A stretch of 64,000 nucleotides of DNA from Vermamoeba vermiformis (GCA_045837725.1 JBEWZL010000257.1:186001-250000); one strand, 5' to 3'; counted from the stretch's first letter, positions 1,596-55,821 are shown. Made by a program: numbers and translations. The notes: generated by a model not told the origin, from the letters alone.

Positions 1596-3667
1596 TTAAA
1601 AGTCCTTAATGATCATCAGCGTCTCATCGAGCTGCAGCAGTGAATTGAGCAGCAAGTCTTGAATGGTCTTCAATCGTTGCAGCGCTTGTTTGTCTTGATT
1701 CGATAGCACTGATATGTTTGTACCTTGCGCTTGCAACTTCTCTTCTTCTTCGGCCTTGTTGAGCACATCCGCGCTCAATTCCATGTGATGGAACAGACGC
1801 AGCTTCATATTGTGCATGGCCTTATATATCTCATTGACGAACAACAAATTGACTTGTTCTCGACGCACTGACCACAAGTAAAATGTCTTGGCGGGCTGAT
1901 GGTCTGCCATCTTGGGCACCTCTTGCAATTGCACCACGTCCTTGCTGAGCATCTTGTACAAGCGATCGCGCGTGTCTTTCACGGGGATCATTGCCAGCTC
2001 AGAGATTTGTTTCTGTTCCACGAGTCGTTTCGTCAACAACAAGCGCCAGATCCGCAGACTGGGCGCACCGAATTTGTGCAACACAATCGACTCGACGGAC
2101 TTCTGCTTGAGGATGTCAATCAGCGCGGTGGCATTGATCGTGTAGCCAGGCGGGGCGAGTACTTTGGTGAGAATGGGTGTCTTCTTGTCCTTGGCCATCA
2201 TATCGAGGTAATTGCGCAGTCGTTCGCTGCTCACTTTGAGCTTGTCGTGCTCCAAGATGCGTGCCATCAACTGCTCCTCACTCACCACACCTGTCAGCTG
2301 CGCATTAGCTTCGATTGCACTCGACTCCCGTGCATTACGTACAGTTGCTCGTGTCAGTGACGGGGGTGGTCGATTGTCGGAGACTAGGCTCGATAATATG
2401 AAACATCTCGCGTATGATCGTGGCCCCCACATTGTCAATCTTCTCTTGCACCAGCTGCACGATGAAGTCTTTGCGCAGCTCGTTCGTGAATCGATCGTAG
2501 TTCAGCGTCCACAACACTTTGGTGTCGTGCTGGCCAATCACGTGTCAGTCATCTCTGGTGCTATTTTTAGTCGCATTGTACTTACGAAAGCACCAATCTG
2601 CTGCGGCGCAGTGTTGTTGTTCGTGTTGTTGCCGTGGTCCGTGGCACTCTCAGCCATGAACACGTCAATTGGTGCTGGGGCGTGTGACACTTCGTTGACT
2701 TTTGTTGACCGCACTGACAACTTGCTCTTTTTGGGCGCACGCTTCGTGTTGGCGACTGGTTTGTCGTCCTCTTCTTCGTCGTCGTCTTCTTTGCGGGCAC
2801 GTTTCTGACATAATGACAGGTGTCAATCAGCGACTTCAGCTAGTAGACAGCTACTTACACGACCACGTGACTTTGCAGGTGTGTTGTCAGCACTCTCCGT
2901 GGCCGCTACATTGGTCTTGCTCACTCCAGGGCCTACATCCACACGCACGAGATATTGTTCCGCAATCATTTGCGTGATCAGCGCGCGCACGTGATCTTCC
3001 AGGGCCTCGTCGAGCTCTGCACCCAGCGTCGTGCGGAACTCGATTTCGCGGGCCATGACGGCTTTTTCGAGCTCCGGCACTGAGATGCGTCCTGCTGCTA
3101 GCAATTCTTCCGCTACGAGCTCGCCCTGAATAATATTCAGTGAATAGGATCTCAGTGGCCTGCGTGGGACATATTTGCATCCGTCATTGTGGGAAAATTA
3201 AAAGAAAATATGTTGGCAGTTAAAGACAAGCATTACATATTGTAGAATTGTATTACTTAATTTAAATAATATTATTTTAATTTTTTAATTTTTTTGACTT
3301 ACGCGATCGCCGAACCGCTCTTTGGCGTGCAGAATAAACTTCGCAAACCGTATTCTAATATTGACGGTGTCTATATTAACTGAGTAGTGATTGATTGCGA
3401 TATCTTTAACGATACTCTCAGTATAAAATATGAAGTTGTGCTGGATGCCGACCAATAAACTCTGTCGGATCTCGTCTAGAGTGAGTTGCGTCTCTTTACG
3501 CAATTGATCTAGAGTCATGCGGCCTTTGGTCATTAATTTACCACATACTTGCTGCAATAATAAAATGAGCTGTTATCAACGAGTGTTGGTAGATTTGTTA
3601 CCTCAACCAAGTCACCGAACTGCTCTTTGATAATATCTCGGGCTATTTTTATCTTGTAATCTGCCAT
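1596..3667 (-). CDS. POLR3C: RNA polymerase III subunit RPC3 (RPC82/POLR3C), multi-exon
   Basis: MADYKIKIARDIIKEQFGDLVE...LLVGIQHN N-terminus; C-terminal KFGAPSLRIWRLL...EQKQISELAM...LQEVPK...TFYLW. Confidence 0.92.
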
Positions 3668-51238: not shown

Positions 51239-52829
51239 TTACAGCTTGCTGTTGTGGTGGAATTGTTGTTCTTCAGTGGAGCCCTTGAGCGCAGAAGTCG
51301 AGCTCTGACCACCAGTGATGGTCATCAAAATCTTGTCGAAGTAGCCAGTACCAACTTCGCGTTGATGCTTGGTGGCAGTGTAGCCAGCTTTTTCAGCAGC
51401 GAATTCTTGTTGTTGCAACTCGACGTAAGCAGTCATGCCCTTTTCAGTGTATTTCTTGGCCAAGTCGAAGGTGTAGAAGTTGACGGTGTGCCAGCCAGCG
51501 AGAGTGATGAATTGGAACTTGTAGCCCATGCGACCGAGCTCTTGTTGGAAGGTAGCGATGGTCTTGTCGTCCAAGTGCATCTTCCAGTTGAAAGAAGGCG
51601 AGCAGTTGTAGGCCAACAACTTGCCGGGGAACTTGGCGTGAATGGCTTGAGCGAATTGGCGAGCTTGTTCCATATCGGGCTCAGAGGTCTCGAACCAGAG
51701 CAAGTCGGCGTAAGGAGCATAAGCGAGACCACGGTGAATGGCAGACTCGAGGCCAGCCTTGACGCGGAAGTAGCCTTCAGGAGTGCGCTCAGAGCTCTCG
51801 AGGAACGGACGGTCATAAGGGTCCACATCGCTGGTCATCAATGTGGCACCAAGAGCGTCAGTGCGGGCAATGATGATGGTGGGGGTCTCGAGCACATCAG
51901 TGGCGAGACGAGCACCGATCAAAGTCTTGACGAATTGAGAAGTGGGCACGAGGACCTTACCGCCCAAGTGACCGCACTTCTTTTCAGAGGCGAGTTGATC
52001 TTCAAAGTGAACACCAGCAGCACCAGCTTCAATCATGGCCTTGGTCAACTCAAAACCGTGCAAAGGACCACCGAATCCGGCTTCAGCATCGGCAACGATG
52101 GGCAAGAACCAGTTACGAGGAGGCTTGCCTTCAGATCTAATATGAACAGTAAGTATTGGTTGAAGATATTGCAATTGTTTCTAGAAGATCTGATCGGAAA
52201 AATGCATTACCTGTCGATTTCGTCACCACGCATCATAGCGTTGTTGAGTCTGCGGATCAAGTTGGGCACACTGTTGCTGGGGTAGAGAGATTGATCGGGA
52301 TAAGTGTTCAAGCTCAAGTTGGCATCAGCGGCCACTTGCCAGCCAGACAAGTAGACGGATTTGACGCCAGCCTTGACCATCTGCACAGCTTGGGCACCAG
52401 TCATGGCACCGAATGTGGCAACGTAGGGCTCGGAGTGGAGCAACTTCCACAAGTTCTCAGCGCCAAACTTGGCAATGGAGTACTCGATCTTCAAGGAGGT
52501 GCGCAAGGCAACAACTTCTTCAGGAGTGTAAGGGCGTTGGACACCTAGACGAAGATATTATATTAGTTCTGCAATCTATTTTAGGATTGTTTTTGTTTAA
52601 ACAATTTTGACGTTTTCGTGGGCCCGAATTTCTACGAGTTCCACGCATAAACGTTAGAAAAAATCAACCAGGGCTACTAAACAATTCAGAAACAGCCACA
52701 GAACAGTAGAAACAATCGGGACTGATATCTTGGTCTTAAAGTCGCAGACTGATACTTGCCTTTGTATCGGGGGCTGGTCCATTGTTCCTTCAAAATGCGG
52801 ACTTGTTGTTCGGGAGTGCCTCTCAACAT
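51239..52829 (-). CDS. ICL: Isocitrate lyase, short (AceA-like) form, C-terminal PTS1 SKL, 3 exons
   Basis: [41 protein letters not shown] (catalytic), [25 protein letters not shown]; ends HNSKL*. Confidence 0.98.
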
Positions 52830-53356
52830 ATTTGATTATCTAATACGCAAACATTAGCATAGTTACAGAAAAGATTGAGGAACGATTTGATTTGATTTGA
52901 TCGATACATTACGGAATTAAATAAAAAAGTTTTTTCGATCGAGTTCGAAAGTGTCAAACAAGCGTGGGACTTGACCGCGTACCAGTTGTAAAGTATGGGG
53001 TTAGAACGGGTGTAGACTGCGAGTAGCGTCGCGAGATGTGTTCGTTGCTTGCTAAAAGCTAATTGAATGAATAGGCACGGTGGATCCCGACCGCTTTTTA
53101 CAGCTTCCTCGCCCAGGGCTTTCCAGGGCTCTCCGAAGGAAATCCGCCCAAAATTCGAAGGTTTATTTGCGAGCCAGTGGGAAAAAGTCACAAACCTTAA
53201 CCAAAACAGTCAGTGAAATTATAACTGCGTGAAATTTCAGTGAGTTGAGACTTGCTGCCCGATTATTTGGCAAGCAAGCTTAGGAACGCAATAACAAAAG
53301 AATCTTTCCAGCACTCGTACTCGCGCAACTTAGTTAGAAACTTTGTAACGAACATC
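52830..53356. promoter_or_regulatory. Putative bidirectional promoter shared by ICL and malate synthase
   Basis: 527 nt between divergent start codons (52829 on -, 53357 on +). Confidence 0.6.
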
Positions 53357-55821
53357 ATGAATACGAACAGAACACCCGTTGGAGTTAGCGTTCTCGGACA
53401 ACGCAATGCTGATGCAGAGAAGATCTTGACGCCAGGTGCTTTAGAGTTCTTGGCTCAATTGCACCGCAACTTTGGCATGCGCCGATTGAAGTTGTTGAAG
53501 GCCCGCAGCAATCGTCTCAAGAGGTAAACAATTAATTTCTGTTGGTGAAGGCACCGCAATTAATTTTTTTATACTTGCCTAGTATTGGATACAATCATTA
53601 ATATGATACCTAATTGTTTCCGTATTTATTTAAAATTTTGGTTGCGGAAATGGGTCCGGTGCAGGATCTGTTTCAAAAAAACAATTACTGATTCACAAAA
53701 CCCTTAACTAAACAAATACCATTGCTTCAGACTTCAAGAAGGTGTCGAGGTATTGGACTTTTTGCCTCAAACAAAGCAAATCCGCAACAACCCTCACTGG
53801 CGCGTGGCTCCCGCACCAAAGGATCTGGACAAACGATGGGTTGAAATTACTGGCCCCGTCGACCGCAAAATGGTAATTGTGACGTGATTCGCTCATGCCG
53901 TTCAGTATTAATTTTGACACTTATGCACTAATTGGGACCGCGGATCAGATCTTGTATTTACTGAACTGATTTCCTGAACAAATCTGATTCAATACCACAT
54001 TATACACGCATCGGTAGAGCACGACCGAATTTCCTATTGAAATCACTCGACTGTGCAGAGTGCAATCAAGTTTTTCAATTTAGAAATAACATTTTGAATT
54101 CGACCGAGTTTTCTTCGCGATCAAGTGCGATGCACTGACCGATATATATCATATTAATGCTTAATTACCACTATTTCTATTAGTTGACATCGAGTTTATG
54201 TTATTTGGTGACTGATCAAGTTCGCAGGTCATCAACGCGTTGAACTCTGGTGCCGACTGCTTTATGGCTGATTTTGAGGACAGTTTGACTCCTCGATGGT
54301 AAGTCATATTAAATATGTCTTATCCGAGCCTAGCGCTTCTATTTCTTGTGGGTTACGGATTTGCTCTTGGGTTTTTTAGAAGAACCGACGATTAAACGCA
54401 GTACCAACAGTAAATCTAATTATATCGATTAGGGACAAGCTGCTTAATGGCCAAGTTAACCTTATGGACGCGGTGCGAAGAAAAATTGAGTTTGCCAAGT
54501 AAGCGGATCCGCTCCATTCAATTGCACTCGACTAATCGCGATTATTATTATAGTCCTGATGGCAAGAAGTACATCTTGAAGTCCGACAGCAAGACCACTT
54601 TGATTGTGCGTCCTCGTGGCTGGCACTTGAACGAGAGATTCTTGCGTAAGTGCTGCAGATCTGACTCGCGCACCTCAATGCACAAATTACGCCTAATTTT
54701 AATAATTATTATTCATATCTAATATGCTCGTTATTGCAGTGGTCGATGGCCAGCCAATGTCAGGCAGTTTGTTCGACTTCGGGCTCTACTTCTACCACAA
54801 CGCCAAAGAATTGTTGTCGCGCGGCTCAGGACCTTATTTCTACTTGCCTAAAATGGAAAGTCACTTGGAGGCTCGTCTCTGGAACAACGTCTTCAACTTC
54901 GCTCAGGACTACATGGACATTCCTCGCGGCACCATTCGCGCGACAGTGTTGATTGAGACACTGCCTGCTGCCTTTGAAATGGAAGAAATTCTGTACGAGC
55001 TGCGTGACCACGCCGCTGGTCTCAATGCTGGTCGCTGGGACTACATCTTCAGCGCCATCAAGAAGAGCTACTGGAACAACAAGACCATTCTGCCTGACCG
55101 CGCTCAAGTCACGATGACTGTGCCCTTCATGCGCTCTTATGTCCTCGCCATGGTCGCTACTTGCCATCGCCGCGGAGCTCACGCCATTGGTGGCATGTCC
55201 GCAGTCATTCCTTCAGGCGAGAACAAAGAAGTGTTCGACAAGGTGCGCGCTGACAAAGAGCGTGAGGTGAATGACGGTTGTGATGGCTCGTGGGTCGCTC
55301 ACCCTGGTCTCGTGGACACTGTGCGCAAGGTGTTCGAGGCCAAGTTGGGCACCAAGAACAATCAAAAGGACAGACTTCGCGAGGACGTTAAAGTTACCGC
55401 GGAACAACTGCGCAACGTTGGTGTAACGGACGGCAAGATCACTGAGGCAGGCATGCGCATGAACATCGATGTCGCCTTGCAATATTTGAACTCGTGGTTG
55501 CTCGGCAACGGCGCTGCTGCCATTCACGGACTGATGGAAGACGCAGCCACCGCTGAGATTTCGCGTACTCAGATTTGGCAGTGGATCTATCACGCTTCCA
55601 AGCTCGATGACGGTCGCACGATCACTCGCGACTTGTACCGCAAGATGATGGAAGAAGAGTACCGCAGATTGACGCAAAATGTCAAGGCGGGCAACAGATT
55701 CAAGGACGCCGCAGAGATTTTGAACAATTTGATCTTGCGCGACGACCTCGTTGACTTCTTGACCCTCCCTGCCTACGACTACTTGTCTGACGGTGTTACG
55801 TCCCTCACTTCCAAGTTGTAA
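53357..55821 (+). CDS. Malate synthase (type A, AceB-like), C-terminal PTS1 SKL, multi-exon
   Basis: [26 protein letters not shown] / INALNSGA...[62 protein letters not shown]; ends TSKL*. Confidence 0.98.

Follow-up and report, generated by a model that had tools for sequence, protein, structure and literature searches.

A 64,000-nucleotide (nt) stretch of the Vermamoeba vermiformis genome (GCA_045837725.1 JBEWZL010000257.1:186001-250000; hereafter, the window) carries, head to head, a gene for isocitrate lyase (ICL) on the minus strand and a gene for malate synthase (MS) on the plus strand, whose start codons are separated by 527 nt (52830-53356). We propose, with a probability of roughly 0.6, that this pair descends from one bacterial aceB-aceA operon that was transferred as a unit and in which one gene was then inverted. 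The gene structures, their splicing, the residues of the two enzymes and their placement among the sampled sequences were observed directly; co-transfer, the inversion, a shared promoter, peroxisomal import and the metabolic role are inferred.

We compared each protein with the best 120 of 8000 scored rows from homology searches. With rows of the Vermamoeba type set aside, ICL had 116 matches (71-78%), and all the named ones were bacterial. For MS, 114 of 115 matches (63-68%) fitted the same description. Similarly, ICL (row P0244 in alignment A1) was 72-73% identical to bacterial ICLs but only 38-41% identical to long ICLs, and its motifs GPLH and AGWH were also present in 96 and 98, respectively, of the 120 best matches. 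A search of 50% representatives returned mainly fragments, among which the Strongyloides fusion was the sole eukaryote that could be named; in the ESM Atlas, which gave matches at the family level only, a 428-amino-acid cluster (most commonly Cnidaria) tied with bacterial clusters at 0.98 and was uninformative.

We found that small LG+G4 trees (the long-branch sequence L087 was removed from one MS tree) placed ICL inside the bacterial clade characterized by GPLH and AGWH (FastTree support 100; Shimodaira-Hasegawa-like approximate likelihood ratio test [SH-aLRT] 98; paired supports 97/94) and MS inside Anaerolineae-type bacterial clades (SH-aLRT 95-99; 93/87 and 94/99). Both proteins nest in one aceB-aceA operon lineage, that of Anaerolineae/Ardenticatenia, Bdellovibrionota and Gemmatimonadota. 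In a comparison of the 45 bacterial or nematode pairs represented in both trees, all 22 pairs from the clade of the Vermamoeba ICL were among the 25 in the clade of its MS. Across 68 pairs, moreover, the five operons nearest in ICL were five of the six nearest in MS. Approximately unbiased (AU) tests rejected the grouping of either protein with the Strongyloides fusion (p-AU 0.044 for ICL and 0.0055 for MS). The initial annotation had looked to maximum-likelihood trees for congruent nesting of the two enzymes; such nesting is seen at the level of the broad clade, but the immediate sisters differ or are unstable.

The bacterial loci that contained both genes were co-directional in every case: 52 of 52 (from 80 loci; 38 in the order aceB-aceA and 14 in the order aceA-aceB), and 19 of 19 (from 20), 19 of 19 (from 20) and 12 of 12 (from 26) in further sets, with a few genomes occurring in more than one set. 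No head-to-head ICL/MS pair was present among the bacterial loci examined in these four sets. Because all these bacterial pairs are co-directional, the layout in Vermamoeba would require the inversion of one gene. Under the co-transfer reading, a single ancient transfer would have brought in both genes on one aceB-aceA operon, from the bacterial lineage represented today in Anaerolineae/Ardenticatenia, Bdellovibrionota and Gemmatimonadota. After the inversion of one gene, the two 5' ends would have been directed towards a single short promoter region, and spliceosomal introns, SKL tags and the codon use of the host would have been acquired.

Several observations weigh against this reading. The immediate sisters differ between ICL and MS and from tree to tree: the sister of ICL was a Phototrophicales sequence (P0026), a Bdellovibrionales sequence (P0074; 98/97), or P0026 together with L217, neither P0026 nor P0074 could be rejected in this position (p-AU 0.57 and 0.31), and the MS from P0074's own operon (L199) did not group with the amoeba MS. 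The correlation between ICL and MS similarity across the 68 pairs was weak (rho 0.20, p 0.09), and a grouping of ICL with three long ICLs was not rejected (p-AU 0.153). The bacterial sequences had been selected by similarity to the query, which favours nesting, and neither Dictyostelium, Acanthamoeba, chlamydomonads, cnidarians and ciliates nor the MS of plants and fungi were represented in the trees; besides the Vermamoeba type, the only named short eukaryotic ICL in them was that of one nematode. Finally, in Fig. S11 of a study available in part (PMC5755239), the MLS-1 proteins of ciliates and Chromera are listed next to Roseiflexus and Thermomicrobium. Both genera fall inside the MS clade that holds Vermamoeba, and thus MS may have a wider eukaryotic link. 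The bacterial origin and co-transfer put forward in the initial annotation are supported by the common operon lineage and by the native introns, peroxisomal targeting signals type 1 (PTS1) and host-like codons of the genes, but given the differing, unstable sisters and the eukaryotic sampling they are not proven.

The best-surviving alternative, which we nevertheless consider unlikely, is a single older acquisition in Amoebozoa. In this scenario, one transfer, of an operon or of a fused gene, gave rise to the Vermamoeba pair and to the short ICL of Dictyostelium and/or the MS-ICL fusion of Acanthamoeba, with later splitting, inversion or retargeting. The bacterial type of the Dictyostelium ICL (PMC1630690) and the occurrence of a mitochondrial MS-ICL fusion in Acanthamoeba (PMC13632651), both as described in the portions of these papers available to us, are consistent with such a history, as is the presence of MS-ICL fusions, in that order, from Bdellovibrio and other rows within the same ICL clade. 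A further point in its favour comes from P0129, the one exception among the 115 MS matches. This eukaryote-like MS is 73% identical to that of the window and ends in ANL; in a variant of it, the reading frame runs on into an interruption of the GT type, at a position where the window MS has no intron. Since P0129 is the sister of the amoeba MS at 100/100, the transfer predates V. vermiformis. We read P0129, from its sequence, as the MS of a second eukaryote-like organism. On the other hand, no other named eukaryote appeared in the best 120 rows for ICL, MS or longer ICL proteins, and joining MS to two MS-ICL fusions cost 27 log units, yet was not rejected (p-AU 0.078).

Related MS rows (P0129 and P0260-P0263) are on contigs of up to 6.9 kb. 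A motif search of metagenome contigs for relatives of the P0129 type found 0 loci with the first clade motif. The second motif found 26 metagenome loci, 17 of them with MS, but all were intronless and GC-rich, and we read them as bacterial rather than as eukaryotes of the P0129 type. Among viral contigs, the four candidates checked yielded no relative. The MS-ICL fusions (P0265-P0384) are common in bacteria, including Bdellovibrio, Bacteriovorax and Anaeromyxobacter, and many have an added PF01814 domain. They are a possible source of the Acanthamoeba fusion; for Vermamoeba, a Bdellovibrio-like fusion donor would require that the gene was split or that MS gained an SKL.

An origin of the two genes from separate bacterial donors (or of MS via another eukaryote, e.g., one with the ciliate MLS-1 type), followed by clustering under selection for co-regulation, strikes us as improbable as well. 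The differing sisters of ICL and MS and the lack of any head-to-head pair among the bacterial loci examined would fit this origin, and so would two published observations, each from a partly available source: the genes of Nematostella and of nematodes group with bacteria that are not the same (PMC1630690), and ciliate MLS-1 lies near some of the same bacteria as the Vermamoeba MS (PMC5755239). However, ICL and MS both land in one operon lineage among the many sampled, and adjacency in a 43-Mb genome would most simply reflect inherited linkage.

That the genes descended vertically within eukaryotes from an early stage, and that ICL lost its insert, is very improbable. The AU test that failed to separate ICL from the long ICLs and the composition of the MS trees leave some room for it; against it stand the much greater identity of ICL to bacterial than to long enzymes and the motifs that it has in common with most of its best matches. 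In addition, the window MS has no intron position in common with an MS-like paralogue elsewhere in the genome (on contig C204), and a tree joining MS to this paralogue and the nematode was rejected (p 0.0014). Bacterial contamination or misassembly, to which the bacterial best matches might point, is excluded by the spliced RNA from eight introns, the SKL tails, the eukaryotic flanks, the host-like codon use and the 96-98% identical orthologues in other strains.

Reads or contigs from four of 23 listed runs were aligned to the window: three raw RNA runs labelled as this species, and X1, a run of contigs that we guessed to be RNA. Of the raw runs, X21 and X22 represent one sample, and the reads, which are unstranded and of low depth, are mostly 90-95% alike to the window. 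Raw reads, from another strain, contained the joints for ICL intron 2 and for all five MS introns, and X1 contigs carried the same joints; overall, RNA joints back all seven coding introns and one intron in the 5' untranslated region (UTR). The V. vermiformis ICL in EukProt is 98% identical to that of the window. The assembly, of 43.3 Mb, contains eukaryotic small subunit ribosomal RNA, and the pair is surrounded in the window by eukaryotic genes (CAND1, dynamin, RRS1 and EFSec). The GC content at third codon positions is 0.63-0.65 in the pair, compared with 0.62-0.73 in eight native open reading frames (ORFs), and the relative synonymous codon usage of the pair correlates better with these ORFs (r=0.84) than with a bacterial ICL (0.52).

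Our gene models agree exactly with the head-to-head arrangement and 527-nt spacer first described. ICL (52829-51239, minus strand) has three coding exons and encodes 433 amino acids ending in HHNSKL. Coding exon 1 (52760..52829) begins with the ATG at 52829, and its N-terminus matches proteins P0006, P0007 and P0244. Intron 1 (52545..52759; GC-AG, 215 nt) was the sole frame-restoring option among the boundaries tried, and its 215-nt joint is present in one X1 contig only. Exon 2 (52211..52544) follows from the gene model and profile matches. Intron 2 (52137..52210; GT-AG, 74 nt) is backed by an RNA joint, 52136-52211, in runs X21, X22 and X1. Exon 3 (51239..52136) encodes the KKCGH catalytic loop, lacks the insert and ends with SKL and the stop codon. 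Splice signals and a joint from one X1 contig (52834-52983, with four letters between) indicate a GT-AG intron of ~143 nt in the 5'UTR (about 52840..52982, minus strand). MS (53357-55821, plus strand) encodes 539 amino acids ending in TSKL. Its gene model comprises exons 1-5 (53357-53523, 53731-53872, 54228-54298, 54433-54498 and 54554-54645) and a last exon of 1082 nt (54740..55821), which matches TIGR01344 (malate synthase A) and ends with SKL and the stop codon. RNA joints back introns 1-4 (207, 355, 134 and 55 nt) and intron 5 (54646-54739, 94 nt); all five are GT-AG and lie within the first 179 codons. The claims that the MS introns are confined to the 5' part, with a last exon of ~1.1 kb, that both proteins carry SKL tags, and that the ICL is a short form of ~430 amino acids without the plant/fungal insert were thus all borne out.

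Each protein has the sequence features of its class. ICL exon 3 matches the short-ICL model NF011645 (430 positions) in one stretch, but TIGR01346 (527 positions) in two, and ICL likewise matches solved ICLs of 538-563 amino acids in two stretches. The gap is plain in alignment A1 against two long, SKL-ending ICLs: in the amoeba protein, only four residues (ESSE) separate DRPFL from RTPEGYFRV. The last exon of MS alone matches TIGR01344 with E 2.6e-157, which is below the whole-protein cut-off, as the exon is partial. ICL and MS are 64% and 52% identical, respectively, to their E. coli counterparts. ICL agrees with E. coli AceA at 17 of 17 positions compared, including residues of the KKCGH loop and those that bind metal and glyoxylate, and MS agrees with AceB at 17 of 17 positions compared, which include the glyoxylate and acetyl-CoA sites.

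The genome contains one recognizable ICL locus, plus one PrpB-like match. The latter, a gene of the methylisocitrate lyase family on contig C145 (L007, about 2957-3508), is 28% identical to ICL. The MS-like paralogue on contig C204 (L006, 3590-5605, plus strand) has eight exons and encodes 525 amino acids that end in SKL and are 40% identical to MS. In this paralogue W365 is changed, the TGP motif is lost and two residues are inserted. As characterized in the available part of one paper, ureidoglycolate lyase (UGL)/MS-like proteins have a W365 change, an eroded acetyl-CoA site and a 2-residue insertion (PMC10120013). By this comparison, the C204 gene is probably a ureidoglycolate lyase of purine catabolism, whereas the window MS retains W365 and the TGP motif and is not of the UGL/MS-like type. 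The C-terminal SKL of both window proteins, together with the import genes PEX14 and PEX19, which we found in the genome, points at the sequence level to a PTS1 import route, by which both enzymes would be imported into peroxisomes. Based on the residue matches, the single ICL locus, PEX14/PEX19 and the UGL-like character of the second MS, the window pair most likely represents a peroxisomal glyoxylate shunt with the amoeba's only recognizable ICL and true malate synthase A; a metabolic role in the shunt is itself highly probable. ICL would split isocitrate into succinate and glyoxylate, and MS would make malate from this glyoxylate and acetyl-CoA, the latter probably supplied by beta-oxidation in the peroxisome.

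The length of the spacer was confirmed, but its use as a promoter along all 527 nt was not, as the 5'UTR intron and transcript contigs occupy part of it. X1 contigs extend to about 53044 on the ICL side (judged from piece lengths) and to 53283 on the MS side. Because these contigs and the 5'UTR intron fill the rest, ~238 nt (53045..53282) rather than 527 separate the transcripts, and this segment is the candidate shared promoter. Contigs cannot mark true transcription starts, and raw-read depth was low in this segment as well. A bidirectional promoter for ICL and MS is plausible; the contig ends lie ~238 nt apart, and that no transcription starts were called from the unstranded, low-depth RNA counts against this part of the proposal. 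We rejected the 527-nt spacer as evidence in itself, because other divergent neighbours in the window are closer, with ATGs 74 and 122 nt apart. These are a GTPase and a SWEET-type transporter (6431/6506; 74 nt) and a WD40 protein and RRS1 (9040/9163; 122 nt).

An inverted pair of 12-mers flanks the candidate promoter: one arm (53045..53056, minus strand) faces ICL and the other (53266..53277, plus strand; 11 of 12 positions match) faces MS. An inverted 12-mer pair of any kind occurred in 311 of 1000 shuffles, whereas just 2 of the 1000 had such a pair close to the ends of both contigs, a feature chosen post hoc. As a general promoter motif the 12-mer was rejected: it has 42 copies in the genome versus 25 for a reversed control, and 18 of 30 copies examined lay inside ORFs of at least 90 codons. 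As the 12-mer does not mark promoters across the genome and was noticed post hoc, we treat it only as a lead.

Downstream of MS, and convergent with it, is an ABC-F-type ATPase gene (55923-about 58050, minus strand), with stop codons 101 nt apart; its RNA coverage in runs X21-X23 far exceeds that of ICL or MS. Elsewhere in the window, a eukaryotic selenocysteine elongation factor (PF21208; 10974-11954, plus strand) suggests that the amoeba may synthesize selenoproteins.

A literature search, with most subscription journals outside its coverage, found no paper describing the Vermamoeba ICL/MS pair. Its components have precedents, cited here from partly available sources. Short ICLs of bacterial origin are described in Dictyostelium, chlamydomonads, Nematostella and nematodes, and an inserted domain marks the long ICL of plants, fungi and ciliates (Kondrashov et al., PMC1630690); the short eukaryotic ICL is therefore not novel. 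Similarly, the initial annotation regarded the pair as a different solution from the fused enzymes, a claim forestalled by published bacterial-type pairs: in Nematostella, ICL and MS are in tandem on opposite strands, 5' to 5' (PMC1630690), and in Acropora, ICL and MS1 are head-to-head with conserved synteny (PMC4083563). Because anthozoans carry the same head-to-head pair, the Vermamoeba arrangement is not new in kind, and because enzymes and arrangement were already known, the surprise is modest. The glyoxylate cycle is known to be mobile, and the pair provides a well-supported example from Amoebozoa. Both of its genes point to one operon lineage, whereas for nematodes and the sea anemone the 2006 analysis was unable to demonstrate this.

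Like the Vermamoeba enzyme, the short ICLs of Dictyostelium and chlamydomonads lack the plant/fungal insert and are attributed to bacterial transfer; unlike it, they have no linkage to MS reported in the available text (PMC1630690). The MS-ICL fusions of Acanthamoeba and Euglena and the ICL-MS fusion of nematodes resemble the Vermamoeba pair in that both enzymes are physically coupled (PMC13632651, PMC5755239, each available in part), but they form one polypeptide, which is mitochondrial in Acanthamoeba and Euglena, whereas Vermamoeba has two genes on opposite strands whose products bear PTS1. A bacterial origin has been argued for the nematode fusion, as we argue for the Vermamoeba pair, but grouping with Strongyloides was rejected. 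Bacterial aceB-aceA operons (Ardenticatenia/Anaerolineae and Bdellovibrionota; L012, L148-L151 and L199-L218) likewise combine a short ICL with malate synthase A, and their identities to the Vermamoeba proteins reach 73% and 63%, respectively, but these operons, and E. coli aceBAK, are co-directional, intronless and without PTS1.

The closest parallel is the pair of Nematostella vectensis and Acropora digitifera. As in Vermamoeba, the genes are unfused and 5' to 5', with a second MS-like gene elsewhere, and the ICL belongs to a bacterial clade, bears introns and has been attributed to transfer of an ace operon (PMC1630690, PMC4083563, in the parts available). The anthozoan pair differs in its animal host and in that the 2006 trees placed its two genes with different bacteria, whereas those of Vermamoeba point to one operon lineage. 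As a tentative and rather doubtful extension, the amoeba and the anthozoans may each have made a head-to-head, one-promoter pair from a captured aceBA operon, with the mirror-image 12-mer beside each 5' end running that of the amoeba. On this reading, Amoebozoa would have three separate acquisitions of glyoxylate-cycle enzymes (the Dictyostelium ICL, the mitochondrial Acanthamoeba fusion and the peroxisomal Vermamoeba pair), and the conversion of an operon to a bidirectional promoter would be directly testable in a culturable protist. Independence of the amoeba and anthozoan pairs would further suggest that eukaryotes have repeatedly preserved the co-regulation of operon genes by inverting one of them to form a divergent pair.

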